Source: an uncultured Bacteroidota bacterium
Lineage (GTDB): Bacteria; Bacteroidota; Bacteroidia; Chitinophagales; Chitinophagaceae
Length of the DNA: 64,000 nucleotides
Direction of reading: 5' to 3'
NCBI GenBank assembly: GCA_902826165.1
Contig: CADEDV010000006.1
Coordinates: forward strand, 10,270 to 74,269
Numbering within the stretch: the first letter of the stretch is position 1; every line of letters begins with the position of its first letter. Shown here in pieces: positions 6,977-59,046 of the stretch. The notes below the pieces were generated by a model. That model was not told where the DNA came from. It worked only from the letters and a program-made list of their open reading frames with translations, and did no database searches. Both the position numbers and the translations under genes were made by a program.

Positions 6977-9367
6977 TTATTCACCCAGTATTTTTTCGAT
7001 ATGTACTAATTTACCATTTACATCAAATCCTTCTATTATCACCCTGTATTTCTTACTTACATCATTATTGTAAAACCTGATAGTTACCGTTTTTGTATCT
7101 GAATCGGTATAAACATCCGGGCTCCAGTAAAGTGTTCTCCGCCGGTCAGTTATTTGTGAATTATTCCCATTATTAGAATAATCTGGATTATAAAACTCCC
7201 TTACAATTGAATATCCGTTACTGGTAAAATATTCCAGCTTATCGATTTGCTGGCCATTATCTTTTTTCTTTGTATAAACAGCAATAGCCCCTCCGGGTGA
7301 ACCACTACCGACACCAACAAAACCAGCCTCGTAATATTTCACCAGTGCAATTTCATCAACTCTTAATGATCGCAGCTGGCTTGCATCAGCCGGTGCCTCA
7401 TCAATGAAAACCCCAACTGCCCATTTTTGTCCTGTTCCAAGACTGAAATTTTTCCTGCTTACAAACCTGTTTCCCTGTAATTCCACATGTGTAATACTAT
7501 TCCGGATCCAATCCATAACATTTAGTGATTTATCGTTTGCCGGAAGGTTGATATTATCCAGATTGACTTTACCCGGAGCCCTGAAAACTCCGGTCGTGTA
7601 TTTCTCATTTACTACATCAAAAGGCTTCTTCGCTGTTTTAGATTCAACAGTAACATTGGCAAGCTCCTTTATTTTTCCCCTGTTTCTCATCCACTCATAC
7701 TGCTCTTTTACTGCTTTATTTAAATTATCGGGATAAAAATGAAGATACACTGTATTATCGGGTAAGGATAGCTCCCCGGTGATCGGATCAGTATGAATTT
7801 TTACCGGTTTTTGTTTCCCTTGTGGATTAGAATACACATAAAAGAAATTGGCTTTCCCATTAAAGGCAGCCGAATCAATCTCAAACCTGCCATCCTGTGC
7901 TACTGGTATCTCGTAACTCTGGGAAGTAGAGTCCTCATTTTCCTGGTAAATACTCAATTTACCTCCGGAGACATGTTGTTTATCCTGTTCTTCATTCACA
8001 ACCCCGGTAACCGACAGCAAGTAAGGTTCATTTGTCTTTTTTACTTTCAAATTTCCTGTCAGTAATTCTTTCCAGTTGAATCGCACCCAGCCATGTGTCA
8101 GCATCAGGTTATCCATAGCAAGAGCTGCTGTATCACCGGTTCCTTCAAAATACCAGCCGGGGTTATGTATATATCCTTTCAGATCGCCGGATAATAAAAA
8201 GGCTGACCAGATACTTTCTTTGTCTTCACTGCCATCAGTAGATGCATCAGTGACCGCTACGGAAAGACTTCTTTGTATAGAAGCGGGAAAATTAATATCA
8301 AATGAATTCATTGCTCTTTTAGCACTGTCATGCTTTACGGTATTGATATTTCCAGCAGAGATATATTCCCTGTTATTAACAAAAGAAAGACGTTCAGCTA
8401 AAGGAAGCCCGTCTTTATTGAAAACCGTAAAATGAAGTATCCCTGACGGCAGGCTATCTGTTAAGACATGTCCTTTTACTGACATGTAATTATCAAATGC
8501 AATATCGGTCTCGTTAACGACCTGGTTATTCATTACGCCTACCAATGTAATATTCTCAAAATTGGATTTACCATTTACACTTCTTGATACTGTAAAAGCT
8601 ATGCCACCCGGTTCATCCTGGATTTTTAAGTTGATCCCTGAACTTATCACTTCAGGTAAGTTAAAAGAATGAATATTACCATTGTAATCTATCTCTGCTT
8701 TGTATTTTTTTGAAAGTTGTGGTTTGAACTGAACCCGGCCGATACCATCATGATATGACTTAAAAGAAGCTATTGTAGTTCCTTCTTCATTACGGATCAC
8801 CCCGTTAATTTCAACAGGATTGCCGCCTGCATCCGTTGCCTTAAAGGCAACAACCGTCAGCAAGCCGTCCACAAGATTTCCACTTTCCGGGAAGAACTGT
8901 ACTTTAATATCCTGTGGAGCTGGGATGATTTTCCCTGCAACAGATGGGTTATAGATATAAATATTCTTCCGGTAAATAAAATCACTCCCATATGTCTGCA
9001 TACCTGCAGTGGTTGCAATAAAATAGTAATTACCCTGTGGCAGGGAGTCCGGCAAATCAATATTTCCTTTTGCCGCTGCTCCCGTTACCGGGTATTTCTT
9101 TTCAGCAATTGTATGGCCTTTATCATCAACCAAACGGATATAGAAATTCGAACTTATTCCGCTTGGCAAACCATTACTCGAAAAATAGGCTTTAAACCAC
9201 ATGGTCTCCCCGGCGATATAATTTTCCTTATCATAGTGAATAAATATCTTTTCAGCAGGAAACTCTGCAGCTAATACAGCAAGCACTGAGTCTCTTTTTT
9301 GAGTGAGCCCTTTTATCCCGGTACTGCATAAAAGCAACAGCAAAAAGATTAGCCTGGTATTTCTCAT
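6977..9367 (-). CDS. large secreted protein with an N-terminal MG2-like domain and a C-terminal TonB-plug-like segment
   Basis: 796 aa with a signal peptide. IFIHYDKENYIAGETMWFKAYF...LPQGNYYF resembles alpha-2-macroglobulin MG2 domains. The C-terminal VDEIALVKYYEAGFVGVGSGSPGGAIAVYTKKKD resembles a Plug/CarboxypepD-associated motif. Confidence 0.6.
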   Translation of the reverse strand: MRNTRLIFLLLLLCSTGIKGLTQKRDSVLAVLAAEFPAEKIFIHYDKENYIAGETMWFKAYFSSNGLPSGISSNFYIRLVDDKGHTIAEKKYPVTGAAAKGNIDLPDSLPQGNYYFIATTAGMQTYGSDFIYRKNIYIYNPSVAGKIIPAPQDIKVQFFPESGNLVDGLLTVVAFKATDAGGNPVEINGVIRNEEGTTIASFKSYHDGIGRVQFKPQLSKKYKAEIDYNGNIHSFNLPEVISSGINLKIQDEPGGIAFTVSRSVNGKSNFENITLVGVMNNQVVNETDIAFDNYMSVKGHVLTDSLPSGILHFTVFNKDGLPLAERLSFVNNREYISAGNINTVKHDSAKRAMNSFDINFPASIQRSLSVAVTDASTDGSEDKESIWSAFLLSGDLKGYIHNPGWYFEGTGDTAALAMDNLMLTHGWVRFNWKELLTGNLKVKKTNEPYLLSVTGVVNEEQDKQHVSGGKLSIYQENEDSTSQSYEIPVAQDGRFEIDSAAFNGKANFFYVYSNPQGKQKPVKIHTDPITGELSLPDNTVYLHFYPDNLNKAVKEQYEWMRNRGKIKELANVTVESKTAKKPFDVVNEKYTTGVFRAPGKVNLDNINLPANDKSLNVMDWIRNSITHVELQGNRFVSRKNFSLGTGQKWAVGVFIDEAPADASQLRSLRVDEIALVKYYEAGFVGVGSGSPGGAIAVYTKKKDNGQQIDKLEYFTSNGYSIVREFYNPDYSNNGNNSQITDRRRTLYWSPDVYTDSDTKTVTIRFYNNDVSKKYRVIIEGFDVNGKLVHIEKILGE

Positions 9368-9515
9368 GTCTGGCTGTTTATTGTAAATATAAATTGTTAC
9401 CCGGGCAAGTTACTATATCAAAATGATGACCGGTATGAGTTTAGTTACCCGGGCCTTACCGGGTTTTCCTGCTATCCTTTCACTAAATAGTCTGCATTCG
9501 CATTAACTTTGGCTG

Positions 9516-11555
9516 ATGTCTTTTAAACTCTATGCTCCATTTCCCCCTGCCGGCGATCAGCCAGGTGCCATTCACCAGCTGACAGAAGCTGTTATACAGG
9601 GTGAAAAATACCAGACACTGCTGGGTGTAACAGGTAGTGGTAAGACTTTCACCATTGCCAATGTCATACAGAATACGCAACGGCCCACGTTAGTCCTGAC
9701 CCATAATAAAACGCTGGTAGCTCAGTTATATGGTGAATTCCGGCAGTTCTTTCCTGAAAATGCGGTTGAATATTTTGTCTCCTACTATGATTACTACCAG
9801 CCGGAAGCTTATATGCCGGTTAGTGATGTATATATTGAAAAAGATCTCAGTATCAATGATGAGCTGGATAAATTAAGGTTAAGGGCCACTTCCAGCTTAT
9901 TGAGTGGCCGCAGGGATATCATTGTAGTTGCTTCCGTGAGCTGTATATATGGTATGGGAAACCCTACCGATTATGAAAACGGGATCATCCGTATTAATAA
10001 AGGACAGCAAATTTCAAGACAGGGCTTTTTGCACTCGTTGGTTAATTCCCTTTATAACAGGACAACGCTGGAATTTAACCGGGGCACCTTCCGGGTAAAA
10101 GGTGATACTGTTGATATCAACCTTCCTTATGTTGATTACGGATACAGGATCACCTTCTTTGGAGATGAGATCGAGGAAATTGAAAGCATAGAAGTTATTA
10201 CCGGGAAAAGGATCGGGAAAATGGAGAATGCCGCTATTTTTCCTGCTAACCTGTATGTGGCTCCCAAGGACATCATGCAGCAGGTGATCTACGAGATACA
10301 GGATGAAATGACTGCACAGGTCGAATATTTTAAGAATACCGGGAAATTCATCGAAGCACAGCGGCTGAAAGAAAGAGTGGAATATGATCTTGAAATGATC
10401 AAAGAACTGGGTTATTGCAGTGGTATTGAAAATTACTCCCGTTTTTTTGACCGCAGAAGACCCGGTACCCGGCCATTCTGTTTGTTGGATTACTTCCCTA
10501 AAGATTTCCTGATGGTCATTGATGAAAGTCACCAGACCATTCCCCAGGTAAGTGGGATGTATGGTGGCGACAGAAGCCGGAAACTCATATTGGTTGACTA
10601 TGGCTTCCGTTTACCCTCTGCCTTAGATAACCGCCCGTTGAATTTTCATGAATTTGACTCCTTATTAAACCAAACCATTTTTGTTTCTGCTACGCCGGAT
10701 GATTTCGAGTTAGAAAAAACCGGCGGTGTGGTGGTGGAGCAGGTCGTCCGTCCAACAGGACTGCTTGATCCTCCCATACAGATCCGGCCCAGCGTAAACC
10801 AGATCGATGACCTGCTGGATGAGATTGATAAAACAGTGAAGAAAGGTGACAGGGTGTTGGTAACGACTTTGACAAAAAGGATGGCTGAAGAGATGGACAA
10901 ATACCTTCACCGTATTAATATCAAATCAAAATATATCCACAGCGAGGTTGATACATTGGAACGGGTGGAAATTCTCAGAGAATTAAGATTAGGCACTATC
11001 GACGTATTGGTGGGAGTAAACCTGTTGCGGGAAGGATTGGACCTGCCGGAAGTTTCTTTAGTTGCCATTCTGGACGCAGACAAAGAAGGTTTTCTGCGGA
11101 ATGAAAAATCGCTGACACAAACTGCGGGCCGGGCAGCCAGGAATGTAGATGGCTTTGTTATTTTCTATGCAGATAAAATGACAGAGAGTATGCAGAAAAC
11201 AATAGATGAAACAAACCGCCGCCGTGAAAAACAGGTCGCTTATAATATAGAACACAATATCACCCCCAGAACCGTAAAGAAAAGTAAAGAGCAGGTATTT
11301 GCACAAACATCAGTGCTTGATATCAAAGGATATGACCCCGCCAATCCTTATGCTATTGCCCCGGATGAAGATCTTGTTACTATTGCGGCGGAAGAGCAAA
11401 CAGAGTATAAAACGATACCACAGGCAGAAAAAGCTATTCAAAAAATTAAAAAGGAAATGGAGAAAGCCGCACGGGATCTTGACTTTATGGAAGCAGCCCG
11501 CCTTCGTGATGAGATGTTTTCCCTGCAAAAAAAACTGGAAGAGATGAAAAAATAA
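9516..11555 (+). CDS. uvrB: excinuclease ABC subunit B
   Basis: GVTGSGKTF Walker A, DESH box, helicase motifs (LVTTLTKRMAEE, VGVNLLREGLDLPEVSLV) and a C-terminal UVR domain (MEAARLRDEM). Confidence 0.97.
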   Translation: MSFKLYAPFPPAGDQPGAIHQLTEAVIQGEKYQTLLGVTGSGKTFTIANVIQNTQRPTLVLTHNKTLVAQLYGEFRQFFPENAVEYFVSYYDYYQPEAYMPVSDVYIEKDLSINDELDKLRLRATSSLLSGRRDIIVVASVSCIYGMGNPTDYENGIIRINKGQQISRQGFLHSLVNSLYNRTTLEFNRGTFRVKGDTVDINLPYVDYGYRITFFGDEIEEIESIEVITGKRIGKMENAAIFPANLYVAPKDIMQQVIYEIQDEMTAQVEYFKNTGKFIEAQRLKERVEYDLEMIKELGYCSGIENYSRFFDRRRPGTRPFCLLDYFPKDFLMVIDESHQTIPQVSGMYGGDRSRKLILVDYGFRLPSALDNRPLNFHEFDSLLNQTIFVSATPDDFELEKTGGVVVEQVVRPTGLLDPPIQIRPSVNQIDDLLDEIDKTVKKGDRVLVTTLTKRMAEEMDKYLHRINIKSKYIHSEVDTLERVEILRELRLGTIDVLVGVNLLREGLDLPEVSLVAILDADKEGFLRNEKSLTQTAGRAARNVDGFVIFYADKMTESMQKTIDETNRRREKQVAYNIEHNITPRTVKKSKEQVFAQTSVLDIKGYDPANPYAIAPDEDLVTIAAEEQTEYKTIPQAEKAIQKIKKEMEKAARDLDFMEAARLRDEMFSLQKKLEEMKK

Positions 11556-39275: not shown

Positions 39276-39869
39276 TTACTTTTTAAGTTGCCTTTTTATC
39301 TGCCTGATCAGTGCTTCCACTTCGCTATCCTTCAGGCCATCATATATTTTTTTCACTTTGCCTTGCTTATTAACCAATGCCCAGAATTGCGTATGTAAAA
39401 AATCATCCGCAACCGTCTTCAAATTATTCACAGGATCATCAATGGTGTAACTAACCCTGGCCATGTTATATAAACTATCTTTCCGGCCTGTCAGGAATAT
39501 CCATTGATTGGTGTTCACCTTCATCGAGTCCGCATATTTTTTTAATACAGGCACAGAATCAACTTCAGGCATGCAGGTATGCGAAAGGATCAGGAAATCT
39601 TTTTCGTCTTTGAATGCATCATACACTTTCCGCATATTACTGTTCATCTTTGGACAAATACCTTTGCAGGTGGTAAAAAAATACTCTGCCACATAAACCT
39701 TCCCTTCCACATCCTTATTGGTCACCATCTTGCCATCCTGGTTCAAAAAAGCAAACGGCATTACATCAGAAATCGTATCATTCCGGCTGATCCACGGACT
39801 TATCACCAGGTAAAAAATAATGATCAATCCCACAAAAAACGCTGTATAAAGGCCCTGCTTTTTAGTCAT
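39276..39869 (-). CDS. SCO1/SenC-family copper chaperone/thiol-disulfide oxidoreductase
   Basis: N-terminal TM anchor, CKGICP (CxxxC) motif and a downstream conserved His (ILSHT). Lies 9 nt upstream of the fur-like gene. Confidence 0.85.
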   Translation of the reverse strand: MTKKQGLYTAFFVGLIIIFYLVISPWISRNDTISDVMPFAFLNQDGKMVTNKDVEGKVYVAEYFFTTCKGICPKMNSNMRKVYDAFKDEKDFLILSHTCMPEVDSVPVLKKYADSMKVNTNQWIFLTGRKDSLYNMARVSYTIDDPVNNLKTVADDFLHTQFWALVNKQGKVKKIYDGLKDSEVEALIRQIKRQLKK

Positions 39870-41620: not shown

Positions 41621-42391
41621 CTATTTGATCAGCAGATTTCTAAATTCCACCGAGTCTCCGCTAAAAACATTGAAGTCAACCTTGGAGGTAATACCATTTA
41701 CATTGCCTGCATCATTGTGCTGCCAGAAAGCCCAGCCCCGGTTGATACGGGGTTGCTGTTCCTGGTAATAGTGTGCCACCCATAGCGGGTAACTGTCAAA
41801 ATCACTGCCGAGATTTCGTTTGTAAAAATCCACATTGGTATAAATGACAGGCTTAACGCCATAATAATTTTCTACTACGGTCAGCCATTCGATCAATTCC
41901 TTTTTGAGTTGTGCGGGAGATGTCCCGTTGAGTTGCTCAATATCCAGTACCGGAGGCAGGTCGCCGGGTTCCAGCTCCACTTTATCAATAAAATTCTCCG
42001 CCTGCAGCTTTCCATCTTTAGAAGGAATAAAAAAATGATAGGCCCCCCGTATAATATCATTGGCCCTTGCCTTTTTCCAATTCCTTTTGAATTGCGGGTC
42101 AGTATTTCCAATCCCTTCGGTTGCTTTGATGAAAGCAAACCCGAGTTGAATATCCTCCACTTTCATTGCTTTCACTTCTTCCCAGGCGATCATGTGCTGG
42201 TAACGGGAAACGTCAATGCCATGGATAGCATAGGTAGTAGGAATAGCTATTCCGAATTCGGGATAGCGGGTAAATTTTGCTTTACGATAGTTAAGCCATT
42301 GGAAAAACATCCAGGACCCTGCTGCCATACCACACAAAATGAGCAGAACCAATATGAATCGGGTGAGTTTTTTCTTCTGTCGGGCAGTCAT
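41621..42391 (-). CDS. membrane-anchored GH25 lysozyme (muramidase)
   Basis: N-terminal TM anchor, then GIDVSRYQ, FAFIKATEG and YHFF motifs of glycoside hydrolase family 25. Confidence 0.85.
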   Translation of the reverse strand: MTARQKKKLTRFILVLLILCGMAAGSWMFFQWLNYRKAKFTRYPEFGIAIPTTYAIHGIDVSRYQHMIAWEEVKAMKVEDIQLGFAFIKATEGIGNTDPQFKRNWKKARANDIIRGAYHFFIPSKDGKLQAENFIDKVELEPGDLPPVLDIEQLNGTSPAQLKKELIEWLTVVENYYGVKPVIYTNVDFYKRNLGSDFDSYPLWVAHYYQEQQPRINRGWAFWQHNDAGNVNGITSKVDFNVFSGDSVEFRNLLIK

Positions 42392-43950: not shown

Positions 43951-44047
43951 TAAAAACCGTTTGTCGCCTAAAAATGACCGTATGACGATATTACAAAACC
44001 ACCGTATACAAAAGGAGCCGGGGCTTCGTAATTTTATAACTGTTCAC

Positions 44048-45193
44048 ATGCAGCAGTATCCCTTCATATTCTCCGATGAAAGAAAATATCGCATCAGACG
44101 CCACCTTTATTTCTGGTTGTTCTGGTGGGTCTTTTTCAGTTTATTGTATGCCTATACTGCCGGGCTGAACTTGTTGCCCGATTCCCGCCGGTTGCCGGTA
44201 TCCACTGTTAACTCGATCTTTTTCATGGCACCTCATATGTTTTTGTCGTATTCACTGATGTACTTCGTGGTTCCGCAGTTTATACTTAAAGGAAAATATA
44301 AGTCGGGTGCTGCCCTTGTACTCCTGCTTTTTTTCGTTACTGCTTGCTTCTCCGCTGTGGTGGGAATGTATTTTCTTCCCGGGATCAGGGCCTGGCTTTT
44401 CCCCTATAATACTTCACACCCGGACAATGCCACTTTTTTCCTTTCATTGCTCGGCGGATTGCGGGGTGCTATCACCATCGGGGGACTGGCTGCATCCATC
44501 AAACTGATGAAATACTGGTATGTAAAAGAGCAACGAAACCTGCAATTACAAAAAGAGAATGTGGAAGCCCAGTTACAATTACTCAAAGCCCAGGTGCATC
44601 CACATTTTTTATTCAATACTTTAAATAATATCTATTCGTACACACAGAACACCGCCCCGGTGGCCGCTAAAATGGTAACAGGGTTATCGGACCTGCTCCG
44701 CTTCATGCTGTATGAATGTAACCAGCCGCTGGTTCCTTTGGCCAAAGAGTTAAAAATGATACAGGATTATATCAGCCTCGAAAAAATCCGGTATGGCAAC
44801 AAACTGGAGTTACATCTCGATCTGCCTGACGACACAAACGATACTCATATTGCACCATTACTGCTGCTACCCTTGGTAGAAAACTGTTTTAAACATGGCA
44901 CCAGTAATATGATTGAGCAGCCCTGGGTGAATTTACAAATTAGCCTCCGGGGAACACAGATGCAGATGAAGCTGATGAACGGAAAAACAAATCAGGCATC
45001 AAAAGAAACAGCCAGTACCGGAATAGGAATAAAAAATGTAGAAAAAAGGTTAGCATTGCTGTATCCCGGCAAGCATGAATTGAATATCCTGAATGAACAA
45101 GATGTCTTTATTATTAACCTGAAAGTGGAACTGGAATATCAAAAAAGTAGCTCCCCCATAAATACAACCAAACAGGAAATGGCGCATGCCTGA
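44048..45193 (+). CDS. LytS/YehU-type sensor histidine kinase (second copy)
   Basis: Multi-TM N-domain, H-box LKAQVHPHFLFNTLNNI, N-box ENCFKHG and G-box GIGIKNV. Start is uncertain (43982 or 44048). Confidence 0.8.
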   Translation: MQQYPFIFSDERKYRIRRHLYFWLFWWVFFSLLYAYTAGLNLLPDSRRLPVSTVNSIFFMAPHMFLSYSLMYFVVPQFILKGKYKSGAALVLLLFFVTACFSAVVGMYFLPGIRAWLFPYNTSHPDNATFFLSLLGGLRGAITIGGLAASIKLMKYWYVKEQRNLQLQKENVEAQLQLLKAQVHPHFLFNTLNNIYSYTQNTAPVAAKMVTGLSDLLRFMLYECNQPLVPLAKELKMIQDYISLEKIRYGNKLELHLDLPDDTNDTHIAPLLLLPLVENCFKHGTSNMIEQPWVNLQISLRGTQMQMKLMNGKTNQASKETASTGIGIKNVEKRLALLYPGKHELNILNEQDVFIINLKVELEYQKSSSPINTTKQEMAHA

Positions 45194-45902
45194 TTCAATG
45201 ATCATAAAATGCCTGGTAGTCGACGATGAGCCTCCTGCAAGGGAGATCATCCGCCGCTACATTGAACAAATGCCCACACTGGAGCTGGTGGCAGAGTGTG
45301 CCAATGCCATCCAGGCTTTTACTGTTTTACAACAACAACCTGTTGATCTTATGTTTTTAGATATCAGGATGCCGCAGTTAAATGGGAATGATTTTTTGAA
45401 AACACTGAAAAATCCGCCGAAAGTAATTTTCACCACCGCCTATACCGAATATGCGTTAGAGGGCTATGAATTGGATGTGGTGGATTACCTGATGAAGCCT
45501 ATTCCCTTTGACCGGTTTTTAAAAGCAGTGAATAAAGCATTTCAACATACTGCTGCAAAACAAGAAGGGTTACAGGTAAATGAAGAAAAAAAATCCGAAT
45601 CCTTTGTGTATTTCCGGGCCGACCGGAAGATGGTGAAAGTAATGCTGCAGGATATTCTTTATATCGAAAGCATGAAGGATTATATAAAAGTAATGACGGC
45701 TGCAGGGACCATCATTACCAAACAATCTATCAGCTCGGTGGAAGCTATGTTACCGGAAAAAGATTTTGTAAGGGTGCACCGCTCGTACATCGTTTCCCTG
45801 GATAAAATAAAAACCTTCACTTCCGAACTGATTGAAATAGAGAAAGCTGAGATCCCGATTGGGAAATTATACCGGAATGCTGTACTGAAAATGCTTGGAT
45901 AG
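45186..45902 (+). CDS. LytTR-family response regulator (second copy)
   Basis: Receiver domain (CLVVDDE, LMFLDIRMP, YLMKP) plus LytTR domain (FVRVHRSYIVSL). Its start overlaps the kinase stop by 8 nt. Confidence 0.9.
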   Translation: MPDSMIIKCLVVDDEPPAREIIRRYIEQMPTLELVAECANAIQAFTVLQQQPVDLMFLDIRMPQLNGNDFLKTLKNPPKVIFTTAYTEYALEGYELDVVDYLMKPIPFDRFLKAVNKAFQHTAAKQEGLQVNEEKKSESFVYFRADRKMVKVMLQDILYIESMKDYIKVMTAAGTIITKQSISSVEAMLPEKDFVRVHRSYIVSLDKIKTFTSELIEIEKAEIPIGKLYRNAVLKMLG

Positions 45903-50386: not shown

Positions 50387-50875
50387 ATGGCTATCCGCAT
50401 CTTCATCACCGGCGGCACCTTCGATAAAGAATATAATGAAATTACAGGTCAGCTTTATTTCAATGACACTCATATGCATGACCTGCTGGAAATGGGACGC
50501 AGTAAGGTTCCGGTAGAGATCAGGACACTGATGATGATCGATAGCCTGGAAATGACCGATGAGGACCGTGAGCTGATCGCTTACCAATGCAATCAGTGTG
50601 ACGAAGAAAAGATCGTTATCACGCATGGCACGGATACAATGGCCATGACGGCTAAATTATTGGCAGAAAAAGTAAAAGATAAAACGATCATACTGACCGG
50701 GGCGATGATTCCTATTAAATTTGGTAGCTCGGATGGCTTATTTAACCTCGGTAGTGCATTAGCTTTTGCGCAAACACTATCTCCCGGTGTTTACGTGGCC
50801 ATGAATGGACGTTATTTCAATTGGGATAATGTGCGGAAGAATAAACAAACGGGGATGTTTGAAGAGATAAAATGA
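50387..50875 (+). CDS. short single-domain asparaginase-family protein
   Basis: 162 aa. ITGGTFDK (compare the TGGTI catalytic Thr motif) and ITHGTDTM motifs of the asparaginase N-domain. Confidence 0.7.
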   Translation: MAIRIFITGGTFDKEYNEITGQLYFNDTHMHDLLEMGRSKVPVEIRTLMMIDSLEMTDEDRELIAYQCNQCDEEKIVITHGTDTMAMTAKLLAEKVKDKTIILTGAMIPIKFGSSDGLFNLGSALAFAQTLSPGVYVAMNGRYFNWDNVRKNKQTGMFEEIK

Positions 50876-50898
50876 TTAGCGAAAGAATACTAAAAGAA

Positions 50899-50923
50899 AA
50901 GGCGGTACAGGTTGTACCGCCTT
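50899..50923. terminator. bidirectional hairpin terminator
   Basis: Stem aaggcggtaca/tgtaccgcctt with a short loop, flanked by A- and T-rich tracts between convergent genes. Confidence 0.75.
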
Positions 50924-50949
50924 TCTTATTAACCATTAAAACTATACCA

Positions 50950-51861
50950 CTATTTTTTCAGGCTCAGGCTCCTGTTAATAGTAAAGCCAAAAGCAAGGTT
51001 ATGAAAATCAAGTTTACTGCTGTTTCGTGCCAGCTGATCGATATTAGAGGAGCTGGTAGTGTTACCAATATAGAACTGGAATAAGTGACCACCGGTATTG
51101 AATTCCATACCTACAGAAAGCAGGTCGGGTTTGTAATTCACGATATTACCGTTTTTATCCAGCAGGTTCTCATACATATTGAACTGGCGGGCATATTCAA
51201 ACGTGATATTCTTGTTAGCAGTCAGCTTATATTTTCCGCCAAGGCCCATAGAGAATACAGAATTACTGTTGTTGATGCCATAAGGGACCACATTAAAGTA
51301 AACCAATGTTGGCATTAACTGCAGGGAAAATTTATCAGAGAACTTACGGGCTACCAATAACTGGTGCATGAAAGAATATTTATTCCATCCGAGAGAAACA
51401 GAAGCATCTTTGGCAGCATTTACGTTGAACATAGAATACCAGCCCACAGATACAGGAATATTTTTCGCACCGGTTTGCTGGCGCAGAATTTTGAATTTAG
51501 CAAAGCCTTCAAAACGTGACCTTCCGGCAGCAGCTAATCCCAGGTTCATATAAGGGGTGGGAGAGTAATCAAATGACAGATATGTATACGCAAGACCGGA
51601 GTTTAAACCCAGTAAACCAGCCATATTATCCTGTGTGGAACCACCTTCGGGCCACAAGGGGCTGAAATGGTGAGATATTAAGAACTGGAGACTTCCTTTA
51701 CTTACGATCTCCGTACTCTGCATATTAATGATCCGGGTAGAATTGAAAGTGGCCCGGGTAAATTTTTGTTTAGGAGCTTCTGTAGCTTCGGGAGTATCCT
51801 GTGCAATGGTAGTTGCCCAACAACCCAATCCTAAAACGAGAAGCGAAAATATTTTTTTCAT
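50950..51861 (-). CDS. small outer-membrane beta-barrel protein (DUF5777-like)
   Basis: 303 aa with a signal peptide. Alternating-hydrophobicity strands run throughout, and GGHLFQFYIGNT lies near the C-terminus. The family name is from memory and needs an HMM check. Confidence 0.65.
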   Translation of the reverse strand: MKKIFSLLVLGLGCWATTIAQDTPEATEAPKQKFTRATFNSTRIINMQSTEIVSKGSLQFLISHHFSPLWPEGGSTQDNMAGLLGLNSGLAYTYLSFDYSPTPYMNLGLAAAGRSRFEGFAKFKILRQQTGAKNIPVSVGWYSMFNVNAAKDASVSLGWNKYSFMHQLLVARKFSDKFSLQLMPTLVYFNVVPYGINNSNSVFSMGLGGKYKLTANKNITFEYARQFNMYENLLDKNGNIVNYKPDLLSVGMEFNTGGHLFQFYIGNTTSSSNIDQLARNSSKLDFHNLAFGFTINRSLSLKK

Positions 51862-51907: not shown

Positions 51908-52525
51908 TTACTGGGGTTGCCCCTGGTTGATCCACTCTTTGAATTTATTGATGGTACAAGTGGTAAGACTTAATGCGCCACCGGGGTGTCCCTGGCTACC
52001 ACCACTGTTCATAATAGTAGTAAGAACAGTTTTCTCAGCCACCATTTTATTATAATCCAATGCTACTGCGATACCACCATGGCAGGTAGATCCTTTACAA
52101 CTGGTATTATAGATCGGTAAAATATCTACTGTATAACGCAGGCTACCACTTACAGTACAACCAGCACCATCATCATAAGGATCTCCCTGGTCAATCCATT
52201 GCTTAATGATGTTCTTCTCATTAGGAGCAAAATCAATAGCACCACCACCTGGGTGAATACCGCCTTCCACCCATGCTTTAAAAACAGATACACGGGAAAG
52301 AATCGCATCATAAAATACCGTATCAAAATGAGAGAATTGTACAGCCCTGGTGGCTATACCATTATTATGACATCCGCAGGGCCCGGCTGTAATGATGGGT
52401 GCCACTTCACTTCTGAAGGATACCCGCGGTAAGGCAATAATATCTTCTTTATTCTGGTAACAGGATGACAGCGCATAAACGATCATCGTGGTCATCATTG
52501 CTGTTATTAATATTTTTGTTTTCAT
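51908..52525 (-). CDS. lipoprotein with two Planctomycete-cytochrome-c-like (PSCyt1-like) domains carrying non-canonical Cys motifs
   Basis: Lipobox ALSSC. Domain 1 is APIITAGPCGCHNNG...IIKQWIDQG. Domain 2 is ILPIYNTSCKGSTCHGG...FKEWINQG. No CXXCH is present. Confidence 0.6.
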   Translation of the reverse strand: MKTKILITAMMTTMIVYALSSCYQNKEDIIALPRVSFRSEVAPIITAGPCGCHNNGIATRAVQFSHFDTVFYDAILSRVSVFKAWVEGGIHPGGGAIDFAPNEKNIIKQWIDQGDPYDDGAGCTVSGSLRYTVDILPIYNTSCKGSTCHGGIAVALDYNKMVAEKTVLTTIMNSGGSQGHPGGALSLTTCTINKFKEWINQGQPQ

Positions 52526-52557
52526 AAACCTGTAGTTTTTTGTAATGATTGATTGGG

Positions 52558-53748
52558 TTAGCGTCTGATGATGTTTCCTGTTTTCCTGTATTTGAAAATA
52601 CCGGCATTATTGACACCATATTTCCACACATCCGGCACATTAGGATCAGCAAAGTACCAGGCTTTGATCAGGGCCACTTCATGCGGTTTCAAACCACCAT
52701 CTCCATATGCCATATCACCCTGGTGTGATGATGCAAATACGCCAGTAGATGGGTTTGCCAGCACTACTGTTGAATCAACTCTTGACACCATAGAGCTTGT
52801 TACATTCAGATAATTTGCTCTTGCATAATATTGTGTAAGCGTTACAGGATCTGTATATTGAACAGATGAATTACTCCTGGCACTTTTCGGATACATAATA
52901 TCCATCAGTATATCATCATAATTCTGCAGAGGTCCTCTTGTACTGGAAGCAGAACGTGGAGTGGTAAGAGTTTTCCAGGGCCTGAAACTTGCATTAGCAA
53001 TAGTATCCCCATAGAATTTTTTTACACTGTCTTTATAAGAGGTCCATACCTGGTTCAATAATGTTTGATTGGAAACCTGGCAGTATAACGTAACGGAACC
53101 AGTAACGGGGTTGATATAAGTAAAGGTGCTGGTATCCGCTGTGGTCAATGGCCCAAACAAACCTTTCCTGGCCCATCCACCGGTAGCCGTTGCCTGGTTA
53201 TGACAATTGGCAGATCCGCAACCATCTGCAATAAGCCTGATAGCGGCTGGTCTGAAATCGGCCAGATCAGGTCTTTCTTTAGCACCATTTAATATCCAGT
53301 TATAAATAAGGCCTTTGTCAGAAGTATTCAATTCATGATTGGAAGCAACAGGGGGCATTGCTTTATCAAAATCATTGGTAGTGATGAACTCCCACAATTT
53401 GCTTCCCTGGGGATTGCCCGGAGTCACATACTTCATGATCTCAGCATAAGTATCAAACTTAGGTGCGATAGGGCCACCATGACAGTTAGAAGTACCGCAG
53501 TACTCATGAATAACAGTTTGTACACCCCGGTATTTGATAACGTCATTTACATCTGGCGTAAGATCAGAAGGGCTTACGGTGTTGCTTTCATAAAACGAAG
53601 CATAGACAGTTGAGTCAGCAGAACCCGTAAAAGACCTGTTAAGGCCTTTTACAATATCTCCTGATTTCGTACACTGGAAAACGGTAGTTGCGAGAAACAC
53701 ACCACAAACAAAGAGAACCACCGTTTGAATAGCTGAAACCTTTTTCAT
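52558..53748 (-). CDS. lipoprotein with PSCyt1-like domains bearing C-x4-CH motifs
   Basis: Signal/lipobox TVFQC. VIHEYCGTSNCHGGP...PGNPQGSKLWEFI...MPP...LIYNWILNGA follows the PSCyt1 pattern. A second CGSANCH is followed by a roughly 200-aa insertion, then GDMAYGDGGLKPHEVALIKAWY. Confidence 0.6.
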   Translation of the reverse strand: MKKVSAIQTVVLFVCGVFLATTVFQCTKSGDIVKGLNRSFTGSADSTVYASFYESNTVSPSDLTPDVNDVIKYRGVQTVIHEYCGTSNCHGGPIAPKFDTYAEIMKYVTPGNPQGSKLWEFITTNDFDKAMPPVASNHELNTSDKGLIYNWILNGAKERPDLADFRPAAIRLIADGCGSANCHNQATATGGWARKGLFGPLTTADTSTFTYINPVTGSVTLYCQVSNQTLLNQVWTSYKDSVKKFYGDTIANASFRPWKTLTTPRSASSTRGPLQNYDDILMDIMYPKSARSNSSVQYTDPVTLTQYYARANYLNVTSSMVSRVDSTVVLANPSTGVFASSHQGDMAYGDGGLKPHEVALIKAWYFADPNVPDVWKYGVNNAGIFKYRKTGNIIRR

Positions 53749-53961: not shown

Positions 53962-54017
53962 GACTCATAAATAAGTTGCATTGTCTTTTACATTCTATAA
54001 ACACAAACCGGTTATAT

Positions 54018-54245
54018 ATGGGAAACAATAAGAAACCAGGTAACAAATCCCGCCGGGATTTTTTATCCCTCTTCATTTCAGCTGATAAAAAAACAGCCCC
54101 TGCTGAAATGGTAAAAATGCTGACAGCAGATGGCAAACTGGTTGAAGTAGACAAAGCTGTTCTGGATGAACTCACTAAGAAGCAGAAGGCTACAAATCAA
54201 CAAATTTTTGACTGGATGAAAAACCCTTCTAAAGAAAACAGCTGA
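54018..54245 (+). CDS. small protein with a twin-arginine-like N-terminus, paralogous to the N-terminal region of the adjacent FeS protein
   Basis: 75 aa from ATG 54018. KSRRDFLSLF...VKMLTADGKLVEVDKAVL parallels KGRRDFIKTA...VKLLSPNGEIVEIDSAYL in the next gene. Confidence 0.5.
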   Translation: MGNNKKPGNKSRRDFLSLFISADKKTAPAEMVKMLTADGKLVEVDKAVLDELTKKQKATNQQIFDWMKNPSKENS

Positions 54246-54278
54246 TAACCCTAATGCTCCTTATTAATAATAAGCACC

Positions 54279-55247
54279 ATGAAACAAGAAGAAATAAATG
54301 ACAAAGGCCGCCGGGATTTTATCAAGACTGCTGCTATCGCAACAGTTGCAGCTACTGCCTGTGGCAGCCTGGCTTGTTCCTGCTCTTCAAAAAAAGCAAC
54401 TACAGGAGATAAGGTAAAACTCTTATCACCCAACGGAGAGATCGTAGAGATCGACTCTGCCTACCTGAAACATGAGGAACATATGGCCATTGTCTCCAAA
54501 CTGGAAGCCAGGGAAGGTATTGCCGGTAAAAAATTCGTGATGGTGGTGGACCTGGCCAGTTGCAAAAATGCAAGAAGCTGCGTCAGTGCCTGTCAGAAAT
54601 GGCACTATCGTCCGAAAGAAACCGAATGGCTGACTGTAAAACTTTTACAGGATAGTGAAAAAGCGGCCCCTTACTGGTTCCCCAAACAATGCTTCCATTG
54701 TGACAACCCTCCTTGCGTAAAGGTTTGTCCCGTTGATGCCACTTTCAAAAGACAAGATGGTCTTGTATTGATAGATAATGAACGTTGTATTGGCTGTAAG
54801 TTCTGTATGGCAGCCTGCCCCTACTCTACCCGTGTATTTAACTGGGATGAACCCGATCAGCCTTTTGATATAAGAAGTTTGACCTCTAACCCCGAAACGG
54901 GTATTCCTGCTAAAGTGGGTACCGTGGAGAAATGTGATTTCTGTCCTGATCGTGCCCGGGAAGGCCTGCTCCCGCCTTGTGTGGAAGCTTGTCCTAATGG
55001 CGTATTCTATTTTGGAGATGAAAATGAAGATACGGTCAGCAATGGTCTTGAAACAGTCAGCTTCAGCCAATTGATCAAAGACAGGGCAGCTTACCGCTAC
55101 CAGGAAGAGCTTGGTACCAAACCAAGGGTCTATTACCTGCCGCCAAAAGACAGGGCATTCCCTGTGGAAAAAGGATACCAGGATGCTGATTCAGCTATCA
55201 AGGAAAGATTTAAAGATTACAAGGATCTGCTTGAAGCAAAAGAATAA
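54279..55247 (+). CDS. Tat-exported 4x[4Fe-4S] ferredoxin-type subunit (NrfC/PsrB/DsrO-like)
   Basis: Tat signal GRRDFIKTAAIATVAA. Cys clusters are CKNARSCVSAC, CFHCDNPPCVKVCP, CIGCKFCMAACP and CDFCPDR...CVEACP. Confidence 0.9.
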   Translation: MKQEEINDKGRRDFIKTAAIATVAATACGSLACSCSSKKATTGDKVKLLSPNGEIVEIDSAYLKHEEHMAIVSKLEAREGIAGKKFVMVVDLASCKNARSCVSACQKWHYRPKETEWLTVKLLQDSEKAAPYWFPKQCFHCDNPPCVKVCPVDATFKRQDGLVLIDNERCIGCKFCMAACPYSTRVFNWDEPDQPFDIRSLTSNPETGIPAKVGTVEKCDFCPDRAREGLLPPCVEACPNGVFYFGDENEDTVSNGLETVSFSQLIKDRAAYRYQEELGTKPRVYYLPPKDRAFPVEKGYQDADSAIKERFKDYKDLLEAKE

Positions 55248-55286
55248 GCAAACCCATTCTTCAACTTTCTCAATGAATACTTAATT

Positions 55287-56627
55287 ATGGAACTCAATAC
55301 ATATCAACAGGAAGCTTTCGATTATCAGCGTAAGAATATCGAAACATATGGCAAAAGAGCCTGGGGCTGGACCATCTTTTATGTGCTCTGCATTCTCGTG
55401 GGCTTATACGCATTATACCTGCAGATTGCCAAAGGACATGGTGTAACAGGAATGAGAGACAATGTGGTTTGGGGTCTGTTCATCGTCAACTTTATCTTCT
55501 TTATCGGGCTCAGTTATGCAGGTGCCATCATTGCCGGTATCCTTCACTTATCCAAAGTAACCTGGGGTAAACCCATTATACGGCTTGCCCAGTTCATGAC
55601 ACTGATCTCCGTGATCGTAGGACCGATTTTTATTCTGCTTTGTGTGGGCCGCTTTGACAGGATGCACCATTTATTTATTTATCCAAGAATACAATCCCCA
55701 CTTACCTGGGATGTGATGGCTGTTGTTACCTTCTTTGCGGGTAGTGTCCTGTTTCTTTACCTGGCACTTATTAAAGATTTCTCTGTGTACCGTGATGCCA
55801 AACTGGATATTCCGAAATGGAAACAAAAATTGTATAAGATACTTGCATTAGGTTATCGTGGCGCTGCCAGCCAGAAAAGACACTTACTGATCTCGCAAAA
55901 CCTGATGGCGATCATCATGATCCCGCTGTCCATTGTTGTTGCCTCTATTCTTTCCTGGATATTTGGTATGACATTGAGGCCAGGCTGGCACAGTACTATC
56001 TTCGGACCTTACTTTGTTTTAGGGGCTGTTTATTCTGGTTGTGGTTTGCTGATCGTGGCCATGTGGTTTTACAGGAAAATGTACAAACTGGATTATTATT
56101 TTACAGACCGCCATTTTAAATACCTCGGGTATATTATGCTGGTGCTGGCCGCCGGTTATGGTTATTTTACTTTCTCCGAATATTTTACCGGTTGGTTTGG
56201 CTCCGAAAAATGGGACAGCGAACTGATCCATAAATTATTCAGCCCTGCTGAGTATGGCTGGTGGACATTCTTTGCCAATTTCGCGGGCATCGTATTACCG
56301 ATTGCTATTGTTGCTATTCCTGCCACCCGAAAACCAGGTCCTATCACGTTAGTGGCATTCATTATGGTAATCGCCATGTGGATAAAACGTTACCTCATCA
56401 TTGTTCCTACACTGGAAACAACTTTATTACCAATGCAGGATACCAGAGCAGAGTATGTAAAATATGCTGCCACCTGGCCTGAATGGGCATTGACCATTGC
56501 AGGTATTGCCACTTTCCTGCTATTCTTTACCGTGATGTCAAAATTTGTAACAGTTGTACCGGTTTCCGGGTTAGAAGATACACATACACATCATGAACAA
56601 CACCAGTTACAACACGAACATCATTAA
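55287..56627 (+). CDS. NrfD/PsrC-family integral membrane quinone-interacting subunit
   Basis: 446 aa with about 10 TM helices. The N-terminal WG...F.....G.......Q...G...TGM...V.WGL.I..F.FFIG.S.AG pattern is typical of NrfD/ActC/HmcC. The C-terminal tail is His-rich. Confidence 0.9.
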   Translation: MELNTYQQEAFDYQRKNIETYGKRAWGWTIFYVLCILVGLYALYLQIAKGHGVTGMRDNVVWGLFIVNFIFFIGLSYAGAIIAGILHLSKVTWGKPIIRLAQFMTLISVIVGPIFILLCVGRFDRMHHLFIYPRIQSPLTWDVMAVVTFFAGSVLFLYLALIKDFSVYRDAKLDIPKWKQKLYKILALGYRGAASQKRHLLISQNLMAIIMIPLSIVVASILSWIFGMTLRPGWHSTIFGPYFVLGAVYSGCGLLIVAMWFYRKMYKLDYYFTDRHFKYLGYIMLVLAAGYGYFTFSEYFTGWFGSEKWDSELIHKLFSPAEYGWWTFFANFAGIVLPIAIVAIPATRKPGPITLVAFIMVIAMWIKRYLIIVPTLETTLLPMQDTRAEYVKYAATWPEWALTIAGIATFLLFFTVMSKFVTVVPVSGLEDTHTHHEQHQLQHEHH

Positions 56628-56668
56628 GCAACAAACCAGGAAAGTACAACCTGCTAAAAAGATAGTAT

Positions 56669-57622
56669 ATGAAACAAGCAATAACTAAAATAACCAGCCC
56701 GGGATTGACCAGGCAACTGTTATTATTTGCAGGAGTCATTTTGTGTTTATTGTCTGCAGCCCCGGCTATTGCGCAAGCTGACAGCACTGCACAACAACCC
56801 GCAGCAGAAGCTCCTGTTGCTGAAGAAGAAGAACTGATATCACCATCTGTTGAATTGATCAGTATTCAGAAAGCTGATAAATCTGTTGATCTTAAGATAG
56901 CCGTTAAAGCAAAGATTGAGAAAAAGATGCGGAAAATGTACGGCCTTAAGGTCAATGTTTTCCAGGTCACTGACTCTGCAGAACAGGAACTCGGCTCTGT
57001 AATTACCGACAGGAATGGCCTGGCTGTTTTTACTGTAAAACCAGAACAAGTTGTTGCTAACGCAGAAGGAATGCTTCATTTCAAAGCAGTACTGGGTCCT
57101 GTTAAAAAAATGGAAAGTACGGAAGGAGAAGTAACTGTGAAAAGAGCATTGCTCACCATCACCCCGGTAAAAGAAGATTCATTGTATTCTGTACAAGTAA
57201 AACTGGTTGATCTTGCTACGGGTGAAGAAACTCCTGTTCCTGAAGCAGCCCTTGGTATTTTTGTTAAACGTTCCTTCAACCCGTTAAAAATCGGGGAGAT
57301 TACCACCGATGAGAATGGTGAAGGCAGTTCTGAAATAGCTAATAATCTGCCCGGTGATGCCAAAGGAAATATCACCCTGCTGGCCCGGCTGGATGAAAAT
57401 GAAACGTATGGTAACCTGGAAGCTGCCGTTGTTCAGCAATGGGGCTTGCCTGTATCGGATAAAATTGAAGATCAGCCAAGAGCTTTATGGAGCTCACATC
57501 CTCCATTGTGGATGTTGATCACTTTTATTATCTTAATGCTGGCTGTGTGGGGACACTATATTGTGATTGTTTACGAATTATTCAGGTTAAGAAAAGAACA
57601 GCCGCATGCAACCAACGTATAG
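56669..57622 (+). CDS. exported repeat protein with a C-terminal TM anchor (Ig/CarboxypepD_reg-like repeats)
   Basis: Signal peptide, acidic linker, and about three beta-rich repeats (TDRNGLAVFTV, TDENGEGSSEI). Terminal TM is HPPLWMLITFIILMLAVWGHYIVIVY. Confidence 0.5.
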   Translation: MKQAITKITSPGLTRQLLLFAGVILCLLSAAPAIAQADSTAQQPAAEAPVAEEEELISPSVELISIQKADKSVDLKIAVKAKIEKKMRKMYGLKVNVFQVTDSAEQELGSVITDRNGLAVFTVKPEQVVANAEGMLHFKAVLGPVKKMESTEGEVTVKRALLTITPVKEDSLYSVQVKLVDLATGEETPVPEAALGIFVKRSFNPLKIGEITTDENGEGSSEIANNLPGDAKGNITLLARLDENETYGNLEAAVVQQWGLPVSDKIEDQPRALWSSHPPLWMLITFIILMLAVWGHYIVIVYELFRLRKEQPHATNV

Positions 57623-57653
57623 TATAACTCTATCTATTTAATAAGCAAAATCA

Positions 57654-58064
57654 ATGAAAATGAAAAAGAATGTAATTGTTATGATAGCTGGCCTATTTGC
57701 TATCGGTTTACTGGCCTTTGTGCCCAAAAACAACACACAGGACCCCTGGCCTGTTCCTGATGCAGCCAAAAACAAAACCAACCCGCTGAAAGGAAATGCA
57801 GAATCTGTTGCAGATGGAAAAACACTCTATAACCAGCATTGCAAATCCTGCCATGGTACAAAAGGTAAAGGTGATGGCCCTAAAGCTTCCCAGTTAGATA
57901 CGGATTGCGGCGATTTTACAAAAGCTTCCTTCCAGTCGCAAACCGACGGAGCCCTTTTCTATAAGACATTTGAAGGACGTAAAGACATGCCTGCCTACAA
58001 AAAGAAAATTCCTGATGCAAATGACATCTGGGCAATCGTAAATTATATGAGGACCTTGAAATAA
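57654..58064 (+). CDS. class I monoheme c-type cytochrome
   Basis: Signal/anchor peptide, canonical CKSCHG heme motif and a distal Met candidate (RKDMPAY). 136 aa. Confidence 0.85.
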   Translation: MKMKKNVIVMIAGLFAIGLLAFVPKNNTQDPWPVPDAAKNKTNPLKGNAESVADGKTLYNQHCKSCHGTKGKGDGPKASQLDTDCGDFTKASFQSQTDGALFYKTFEGRKDMPAYKKKIPDANDIWAIVNYMRTLK

Positions 58065-58082
58065 ATAATTGTTTCAGTTATT

Positions 58083-58110
58083 AAAACCACTCCACGGAGT
58101 GGTTTTTTTA
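58083..58110 (+). terminator. intrinsic terminator after the cytochrome c gene
   Basis: Stem aaaccact(c)/(g)agtggttt followed by ttttttatt. Confidence 0.8.
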
Positions 58111-58197
58111 TTATTCCTGTACCTGCCGCTGACCGTATATATATTTTTGTATGCTGCTAATGGTCACAGCCACTACATTTATACCCGGCTATCATTT

Positions 58198-59046
58198 ATG
58201 CAGCATATTGAATTTTTTCATACCGACCACTTCGAAACAAACTACCACCGGGTGCCGCCACCGGCTGCGCTCAACCATTTCATTGATTTTTTCTGGGAAA
58301 CCAAATTTGGTCCGTTGTGGAAAGAATATCCTAAAGGTTTTTCCGATGCACAGTTTCCGAATATCGGTTACACCTATATCATTAACCTGGGTACCCCTTT
58401 CATTATGCAGGTGGCTGATAAGAAATTCAGCATGAAGACCGATTGTTTTTTACCCCGGTATAATGCCATTGAATGTTTTCATAAACCAGGCAATCATTTA
58501 TTCGGTATCAAGTTCCGTGTTTCCCCGGTACTCTACGAGAAGAAGATCAACTTTGCAGAATATAAAAGTTATATTTTTCCTCTCAGTTATTTACTGGATC
58601 ACCTTATCATTAATAAGATCAAAAAAGCCAGCTCCTTTACTGAAAGAATGGTTATTGTGTCTGATTATTTTACCAGCCTGCTGCATAAACAGGAGGGCTC
58701 TTTACAACAGGTCAATATTGTCAGTAGCATTATGGAACGTTGCATCCGGGAAAATGATTTTACGGTTTCATTAGAAAAATTAGCCGCCCGCCACAATATA
58801 TCGGTTCGTACCCTGCAACGTTATTTTGAGACCTGTACCGGCATCAGCACCAAGCAGGCTTTGCAGGTGATGCGGATCCGCAAAGCCACTGCTCATCTTG
58901 CCGGTTCACCCGGTGATTTTCATTATTCTTTATACAATTATTACGACCATAGTCATTTTTATAAACACCTGAAACAATTCCTGCAAAAAAATACATTGAA
59001 GAACCTGCAGCCGCACCTGGAATTGTTGAAAACATTGCATCGTTGA
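58198..59046 (+). CDS. AraC-family transcriptional regulator
   Basis: C-terminal double HTH (ISVRTLQRYFETCTGISTKQALQVMRIRKA). The ATG at 58198 lies downstream of the terminator, and the ORF-track start 58069 would include that terminator. Confidence 0.8.
   Translation: MQHIEFFHTDHFETNYHRVPPPAALNHFIDFFWETKFGPLWKEYPKGFSDAQFPNIGYTYIINLGTPFIMQVADKKFSMKTDCFLPRYNAIECFHKPGNHLFGIKFRVSPVLYEKKINFAEYKSYIFPLSYLLDHLIINKIKKASSFTERMVIVSDYFTSLLHKQEGSLQQVNIVSSIMERCIRENDFTVSLEKLAARHNISVRTLQRYFETCTGISTKQALQVMRIRKATAHLAGSPGDFHYSLYNYYDHSHFYKHLKQFLQKNTLKNLQPHLELLKTLHR

Follow-up and report, generated by a model that had tools for sequence, protein, structure and literature searches.

The locus described here lies in a 64-kb stretch of DNA (the window) of contig CADEDV010000006.1, from an uncultured Bacteroidota bacterium of the Chitinophagaceae; all coordinates are window positions. 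Two minus-strand genes encode a protein of 396 amino acids (aa) and a lipoprotein of 205 aa, which are most likely dihaem c-type cytochromes with non-canonical haem motifs. The open reading frames (ORFs), their domains and the residues discussed below are as follows.

52558-53748, minus strand: 396-aa protein; ORF with an N-terminal signal or anchor, an intact class-I/PSCyt1-like domain and an interrupted second domain
53263-53562, minus strand: domain 1 of the 396-aa protein (residues 63-162)
53479-53499, minus strand: C84-x4-C89-H90 in domain 1 of the 396-aa protein
53350-53358, minus strand: M131-P-P in domain 1 of the 396-aa protein
52624-53256, minus strand: putative split domain 2 of the 396-aa protein (residues ~165-375)
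53200-53220, minus strand: C177-x4-C182-H183 in domain 2 of the 396-aa protein
52711-52713, minus strand: M346 of G-D-M-A-Y-G in domain 2 of the 396-aa protein, with L-I-K-A-W364 further on
51908-52525, minus strand: 205-aa lipoprotein; ORF with lipobox L-S-S-C22 and two class-I-type cytochrome c domains
52178-52405, minus strand: domain 1 of the 205-aa protein (residues 41-116)
52367-52378, minus strand: C50-G-C52-H53, the contracted motif in domain 1 of the 205-aa protein
52253-52255, minus strand: H91 of H91-P-G-G, in place of MPP in domain 1 of the 205-aa protein, followed by W110-I-D-Q-G
51917-52123, minus strand: domain 2 of the 205-aa protein (residues 135-203), with W198-I-N-Q-G at its end
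52079-52099, minus strand: C143-x4-C148-H149 in domain 2 of the 205-aa protein
51986-51988, minus strand: H180 of H180-P-G-G, in place of MPxG in domain 2 of the 205-aa protein

The 396-aa protein carries CGTSNCH at residues 84-90 and CGSANCH at residues 177-183, and the 205-aa protein carries CGCH at residues 50-53 and CKGSTCH at residues 143-149. The original prediction had named these four motifs and stated that neither protein contains a canonical CXXCH. Both statements were confirmed. We found 883 homologues of the 396-aa protein and 579 of the 205-aa protein, and conservation was read from 120 homologues of each (68-98% identity). CXXCH was absent from all 240. The spacing of the Cys residues was (4,4) in all 120 for the 396-aa protein and (1,4) in 119 of 120 for the 205-aa protein. 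Invariant residues in the close 396-aa family were C84, C89, H90, M131-P-P, W151, C177, C182, H183 and M346; those in the close 205-aa family were C50, C52, H53, H91-P-G, C143, C148, H149 and H180-P-G-G. Poor conservation of the Cys and His positions, named at the outset together with a lack of covalent haem as a reason to give up the cytochrome interpretation, was not what we observed. In a six-frame scan of the whole window (ORFs of at least 100 aa; 27,684 aa), C-x4-CH occurred only three times. As all three fell within these two ORFs, the motifs are more than a chance occurrence. The sole credible CXXCH in the scan belonged to a small cytochrome encoded at 57654-58064.

Domain 1 of the 396-aa protein matched Pfam PSCyt1 (PF07635) at 24.4 bits, above the gathering score of 22 (E = 4.6e-5). 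The match spanned only residues 97-133 (profile positions 15-57), i.e. the part downstream of the haem motif. A profile of this domain (alignment A3) was searched against 1.84 billion cluster representatives and retrieved 754 proteins at E <= 0.001. A second, independent profile was built from 195 domains, all of them from proteins non-orthologous to the 396-aa query, and it scored 102.9 bits on domain 1. The same profile gave 13.4 bits on domain 1 and 27.4 bits on domain 2 of the 205-aa protein, for which hhalign returned 96.5% (P = 8.7e-10) and 97.2% (P = 2.9e-11), respectively. The expected homology to PF07635-type sequences was thus borne out.

With a family profile of 30 sequences (A4), domain-length matches among PDB chains were found to FoxE (5mab, the best, E = 7e-7), 7c90, QcrC (7rh5 and 6hwh), c6 and c551/c552. 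E-values for the c551-, c6- and QcrC-type chains were weak (3e-4 to 0.03), so this class-I relation stands at the superfamily level. In these full-length alignments, C-a-t-s-g-C-H lay over CXXCH with a two-residue gap, and M-P-P coincided with the M-P of those chains. Alignments of hydrazine synthase alpha and PccH covered the first helix and the motif, where both also have CXXCH. The odd motifs therefore sit at the CXXCH site of their relatives and of solved class-I cytochromes. In Pseudomonas c551, the Met of P-M-P-P-N is the axial ligand and a conserved Trp lies on the C-terminal helix. The same layout is found here. Judged by these profile matches, three of the four domains are clearly class-I cytochrome c domains of the PSCyt1/FoxE/c551 type; for the fourth, the split second domain of the 396-aa protein, support for a cytochrome identity is weak.

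The likeness to PSCyt1 and FoxE consists of a shared layout: a helix, Cys...Cys-His, PG.P..S.L, M-P-P and W-I-x-x-G-A. This layout had been attributed to both proteins. It is present in full in domain 1 of the 396-aa protein, which also holds PGNPQGSKLW and W151-I-L-N-G. It is not present in the other three domains: in domain 2 of the 396-aa protein, one finds D-M-A-Y-G and A-W-Y-F instead, and both domains of the 205-aa protein lack PG..S.L and have HPGG where MPP had been claimed. Further differences from PSCyt1 are the C-x4-CH or C-x-CH at the domain start instead of CXXCH, the replacement of Met by His in the 205-aa protein, and the partner domains that usually accompany PSCyt1 in the same protein, PSCyt2 (DUF1549) and PSD1 (DUF1553), which were not found in either protein. 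A distant representative, P0339, carries PSCyt2. FoxE (Rhodobacter ferrooxidans SW2, 5MAB) differs in that no foxYZ-like neighbour exists here, and the hosts of PSCyt1 and FoxE are Planctomycetota and Alphaproteobacteria, whereas the window host belongs to Bacteroidota. Among NCBIfam models, the closest to the domain family was NF047812, the 'LIC11213 family lipoprotein' of Leptospira, to which representative P0250 scored 109 bits (cut-off 100). The 396-aa protein stays outside that family because it scored 24.8 bits against the same cut-off, and the 205-aa protein had no match to it.

In the 205-aa protein, the swap from Met to His is positional, with HPGG aligned to MPxG. Its domain 2 aligned with monohaem cytochromes of 114-129 aa that are encoded by the second gene of related operons (see below). 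These have CXXCH, M-P-[QK]-G and an extra Cys pair matching C123 and C190 of the 205-aa protein; C123 and C190 probably form a disulfide. A direct hhalign comparison of the 396-aa family (A1) with the 205-aa family (A2) gave a single 55-column match at 8% probability, which serves only the equivalence of MPP and HPGG.

Export was read off the sequences themselves, by inspection of signals and lipoboxes. The prediction that both proteins are lipoproteins stood for the 205-aa protein, whose lipobox (L-S-S-C22) is standard and invariant. It is uncertain for the 396-aa protein because its lipobox is atypical: the hydrophobic N-terminus (53671-53748) ends in V-F-Q-C26, with Q25 and C26 invariant and V-Q-C in a distant orthologue. 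It could be a lipoprotein with an odd residue at position -1 or a signal-anchored protein. From the lipid Cys onwards, the N-terminus reads C-Y-Q-N-K-E-D in the 205-aa protein (52460-52525) and C-Y-Y-D-N-E-E in the small cytochromes of three related operons (L083, L085 and L087). This acidic stretch presumably resembles the surface-export signal of Bacteroidota lipoproteins.

Domain 2 of the 396-aa protein had been described as split by an insertion. Modest support for a split cytochrome c domain came from hhalign, which found three colinear pieces at residues 172-189 (P = 3.6e-4), 269-284 (P = 0.036) and 334-364 (P = 2.8e-3). When the C-terminal half was tested as a single sequence with a hidden Markov model, the result was not significant: the real score was equalled or exceeded by 116 of 2000 shuffles. 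The distance from Cys to Trp is 67 residues in domain 1 (C84-W151) and 187 in domain 2 (C177-W364). The inserted sequence is thus about 120-125 aa long, not the roughly 200 aa claimed before, and it probably consists of two insertions. M346 is the likely distal ligand because it is kept in the distant orthologue at locus L082 (N-M-A-Y-K). A separate feature of the inserted region is a lone cysteine, Cys223 (53080-53082), which is invariant in the close family and absent from the L082 orthologue. We rejected it as the distal ligand for this absence, since the Met persists there.

We also surveyed the motif spacing in 260 domain matches within the best 150 representatives. C-x4-CH was found in 147 domains, CXXCH in 62, x6 in two, and x1, x3, x5 and x7 in one each; the proportions are tilted to C-x4-CH because the search profile itself carried it. 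The MPP column was Met in nearly all of these domains. Among 133 representatives outside the 396-aa family, 76 mixed x4 and x2 in one chain, usually in the order (4,2) or (4,4,2), 17 had x4 only and 36 had x2 only. The consensus outside that family was [SAT]-[NS]-C-[AGT]-x-[ST]-G-C-H-[DNG], with the core C-A-x-S-G-C-H. Named relatives came from Bacteroidota, Bacteroidales, Bacteroidia, Flexibacter and Sphingobacteriales. One C-x4-CH member is named 'c-type cytochrome domain-containing protein' at NCBI, and look-ups of cluster names returned only 'hypothetical protein' or generic cytochrome labels. On these counts, C-x4-CH is a stereotyped and widespread motif in a domain family of Bacteroidota and not specific to this locus. 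The view that expanded motifs are rare holds for haem motifs overall, but not for this domain family, where C-x4-CH is common.

The L082 orthologues show how the motifs vary over a greater distance. The orthologue of the 396-aa protein has CGNCH and CTAQCH (C-x3-CH) at the two motif sites, and the orthologue of the 205-aa protein has CGCH and CAGGSCH and retains both HPGG motifs. At a site that is itself fixed, the spacing changes but both Cys, the His and the distal ligand are retained, as expected of a haem attachment site. In the 157-aa cluster representative P0246, a relative of domain 1, both Cys are replaced by Phe and Ile and M-P-P by I-P-P, with the His retained; the protein may be a derivative without haem, or its sequence may be defective.

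The two cytochrome genes are part of a divergent cluster of eight genes that is conserved in Chitinophagaceae. In a one-genome-per-species collection, the 396-aa family had 187 matches. Among the 80 loci listed, all hosts were Bacteroidota, most of them under the labels Chitinophagaceae, Ferruginibacter or 'Chitinophaga', and nearly all were metagenome-assembled genomes; Ferruginibacter sp. SUN106 (L067) is one cultured carrier. Gene order was compared in 81 loci. The eight-gene arrangement was kept in about 60 of them, with variable flanking genes, and most absences of a cluster gene fell at contig ends. On the minus side, the order is the 396-aa gene, the 205-aa gene (77/81 loci) and a DUF5777 gene (76/81). 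The other features of the cluster are as follows.

50950-51861, minus strand: DUF5777 protein of 303 aa, a predicted outer-membrane beta-barrel (PF19089, E = 1.4e-60); third gene of the minus-strand operon
50897-50925, minus strand: terminator-like hairpin with a 13-bp stem and a T run, closing the minus-strand operon
53976-54245, plus strand: small ORF of 75-89 aa carrying S-R-R-D-F-L, a twin-arginine-like signal; opens the plus-strand operon (69/81 loci)
54279-55247, plus strand: periplasmic 4Fe-4S protein of 322 aa with a twin-arginine signal, similar to NrfC, DsrO and the C-terminal region of ActB (Fer4_11, E = 1.4e-24; 70/81 loci)
55287-56627, plus strand: NrfD-family membrane subunit (Pfam NrfD, E = 4.5e-26; 64/81 loci)
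56669-57622, plus strand: 317-aa protein with an N-terminal signal, immunoglobulin-like repeats (sub-threshold matches only) and a C-terminal transmembrane helix (63/81 loci)
57654-58064, plus strand: canonical class-I cytochrome c of 136 aa with CKSCH...D-M-P; last gene of the plus-strand operon (59 loci)
58083-58106, plus strand: terminator-like hairpin with a 10-bp stem and a T run, closing the plus-strand operon

The DUF5777 protein had no match in a PDB sequence search, and the small ORF had no Pfam match. In the PDB, the 4Fe-4S protein matched NrfC (2vpw_B, E = 6e-29) and ActB of alternative complex III (ACIII; 6f0k_B, E = 8e-20). The best matches of the NrfD-family subunit, which is the presumed quinol site, were all ActC (6f0k_C, E = 2.7e-50; 8k9e_C; 6lod_C; 6btm_C, E = 2e-40). 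The L001 homologue of the 136-aa cytochrome matched Cytochrom_C and Cytochrome_CBB3. The plus-strand operon (53976-58106) looks like a stripped-down relative of ACIII, which it resembles in its ActC-like NrfD subunit, its iron-sulfur protein matching the C-terminal part of ActB, and the cytochromes c alongside. It differs in that the pentahaem ActA, the molybdopterin-like ActB1 domain and ActF are not in the cluster, and a DUF5777 barrel is there instead. Full ActB is about 1000 aa long compared with 322 aa for the iron-sulfur protein here, the cluster has neither a multihaem protein nor a second NrfD gene, and its cytochromes are unrelated in architecture to ActA and ActE. A true ACIII was rejected for the missing ActA, ActB1 and ActF. 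A Dsr complex was also rejected: DsrO scored 187.4 bits (cut-off 200) and DsrP 75.8 bits (cut-off 350), and no homologues of DsrJ, DsrM or DsrK were found near the cluster.

Related operons were found in other Bacteroidota. The recurring form comprises a PSCyt1-like cytochrome that has C-x4-CH and in some cases CXXCH as well, a CXXCH cytochrome of 114-129 aa, DUF5777, YceI and a tRNA_anti-like OB-fold protein, at the following locus positions.

L083, 7001-10439: recurring operon
L085, 6001-8858: recurring operon
L087, 6001-9296: recurring operon
L088, 582-3981: recurring operon; the contig ends ahead of the OB-fold gene
L090, 5001-7726: recurring operon

In a variant at L082, the 375-aa and 208-aa orthologues of our pair are followed by YceI and then DUF5777. 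At L001, a second module lies between the two operons of the cluster (7136-9709) and comprises an EB_dh (haem-b-type) lipoprotein of 405 aa, a 131-aa cytochrome and DUF5777; the 131-aa cytochrome has C-x4-CH in the form CNNSGCH, plus P-M-P. Therefore, DUF5777 barrels pair with different haem proteins.

Considering all these results, we think it probable that the two proteins are periplasm-side c-type cytochromes with altered Cys spacing and retained ligands, matured by the general machinery and placed in a quinol-linked electron path. The 396-aa protein would carry two His/Met haems (H90/M131 and H183/M346). The 205-aa protein would carry two bis-His haems (H53/H91 and H149/H180), one of them on the contracted C-x-CH. 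This bis-His ligation is suggested because HPGG fills the MPP/MPxG column in both domains. We observed the homology, the motif position, the conservation of residues and the gene linkage; we infer covalent haem, the axial ligands and the direction and endpoint of electron flow. The original prediction had remarked that expanded motifs usually need dedicated lyases. No CcsA/ResC-like lyase gene was found in the cluster or, elsewhere in the window, among the ORFs scanned, and a dedicated lyase encoded in the cluster was rejected for this reason. As x4 and x2 share one chain in the mixed representatives and no lyase-like gene is in the cluster, which also encodes the CKSCH cytochrome, no special lyase seems to be needed. 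The haems would most likely be attached by the general cytochrome c machinery of the organism. Because the pair is linked to a DUF5777 barrel and to a divergent ACIII-like quinol module, it probably lies in an electron path between the menaquinone pool and a periplasmic, outer-membrane or external redox partner.

Several points weigh against this interpretation. Domain 2 of the 396-aa protein is weakly recognisable by profile, and the 205-aa protein has no significant Pfam match and no PSCyt1 match at E <= 1. Among the PDB relatives of this fold, all carry CXXCH and none has C-x4-CH or C-x-CH. AlphaFold2 models from alignments of 38 and 39 sequences were poor, with a mean predicted local distance difference test (pLDDT) score of 46.8 and 48.2. 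Maturation of C-x4-CH by System II is an assumption. The contracted motif of a Kuenenia stuttgartiensis cytochrome is said to be CXCH, whereas a review has CXCK.

The alternative that survives best is that only some of the sites bind haem, with the C-x-CH site, the interrupted domain 2 of the 396-aa protein, or both being haem-free, attached by a single thioether or structural; domain 1 of the 396-aa protein and domain 2 of the 205-aa protein would still be real cytochromes. Such a situation would account for the fragmentary profile matches of the interrupted domain, for the score of domain 1 of the 205-aa protein (the weakest full-domain match) and for the finding of C-x-CH in just one other representative (P0311). 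However, C50/C52/H53/H91 and C177/C182/H183/M346 are invariant and, apart from spacing, kept at L082, and domain 1 of the 205-aa protein was still recognised by hhalign. A contracted motif with one residue between the Cys, given as CXCK in a review, has also been reported from experiment to hold haem covalently in the tetrahaem cytochrome of Kuenenia stuttgartiensis (Ferousi et al. 2019, J Biol Chem, as cited in that review). We regard partial haem binding as rather unlikely.

It is very unlikely that all four domains are degenerate folds without haem, in which the Cys pair and His form a disulfide or a Zn, Cu or Fe site in a redox-sensor or metal-handling lipoprotein. The missing CXXCH in both proteins and their homologues would fit such a loss, as would the change from Met to His in the 205-aa protein, given that Cys/His-rich sites can take metals. 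An AZUL zinc-domain match at residues 172-191 of the 396-aa protein (E = 0.025) points the same way, but it lies far under the 23.8-bit threshold. In contrast, relatives and solved cytochromes carry CXXCH in the same columns, the distal-ligand column stays Met or His, and C-x4-CH is fused to CXXCH domains in more than half of the representatives outside the 396-aa family (76/133). CX4CH is, moreover, an accepted though rare covalent haem motif, seen in the structures of tetrahaem cytochrome c3 and of haem 3 of hydrazine dehydrogenase, and the neighbouring genes encode respiratory electron-transfer proteins. The loss of haem, which had been raised together with the original prediction, is disfavoured by the invariance of both Cys, the His and the distal ligand (Met or His). 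Chance motifs in unrelated proteins with a spurious PSCyt1 resemblance are hardly credible: the Pfam match of the 396-aa protein is marginal and partial and the 205-aa protein has none, but the independent profile score, the hhalign P-values of 1e-9 to 1e-11, the complete conservation of the motifs in homologues and the confinement of all three C-x4-CH of the window to these two ORFs speak against it.

Dihaem cytochromes with altered motifs, our preferred interpretation, would differ from the known cases of unusual spacing. Cytochrome c3 and hydrazine dehydrogenase have multihaem class-III or HAO-type folds with packed bis-His haems, whereas the motif occurs here in a monohaem class-I fold. 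The contracted-motif cytochrome of Kuenenia stuttgartiensis likewise has one residue between the Cys, but it has another fold and belongs to another phylum. A stereotyped C-x4-CH in a monohaem class-I fold across Bacteroidota appears to be undescribed, as do a protein pair without any canonical motif, including C-x-CH and His for Met, and the eight-gene cluster itself. Our literature search, which left most subscription journals outside its scope, found nothing on C-x4-CH in Bacteroidota or class-I domains, on such a pair or on the cluster. It also returned no DUF5777 papers and nothing on the recurring YceI/cytochrome c/Bacteroidetes operon.

Cytochrome counts based on CXXCH only would miss both proteins and many of their Bacteroidota relatives, which matters for the Chitinophagaceae of activated sludge and freshwater. 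Spacings from x1 to x7 on one simple class-I fold make a natural series, which could reveal what the haem-attachment machinery of Bacteroidota can accept and in which way the haem is tuned by spacing and by the distal ligand. The linkage to DUF5777 barrels and, at this locus, to an ACIII-like quinol module points to an unstudied envelope redox module. A more speculative proposal, which we consider unlikely, is an undescribed trans-envelope redox system of Bacteroidota. In it, the non-canonical cytochromes might form a periplasmic or surface wire that moves electrons between the menaquinone pool and a partner in the outer membrane or outside the cell. They would work with the DUF5777 barrel and, at this locus, with a mini ACIII-like quinol module, whereas in other operons YceI and an OB-fold lipoprotein would join them; C-x4-CH, C-x-CH and His for Met might then tune the potential or exposure of the haems along this path.

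Three further observations concern the surroundings of the cluster. A 162-aa ORF at 50387-50875 (plus strand) matched only the N-terminal domain of asparaginase and was near the cluster in 28 of the 81 loci; because its distance from the cluster varies, we placed it outside the conserved unit. An AraC-type (HTH_18) regulator at 58069-59046 (plus strand) lies just past the plus-strand operon, and its presence is not conserved alongside the cluster. Elsewhere in the window, a SCO1/SenC copper chaperone (39276-39869, minus strand), a GH25 lysozyme-like protein (41621-42391, minus strand) and a LytTR-type two-component pair (43961-45902, plus strand) are encoded.

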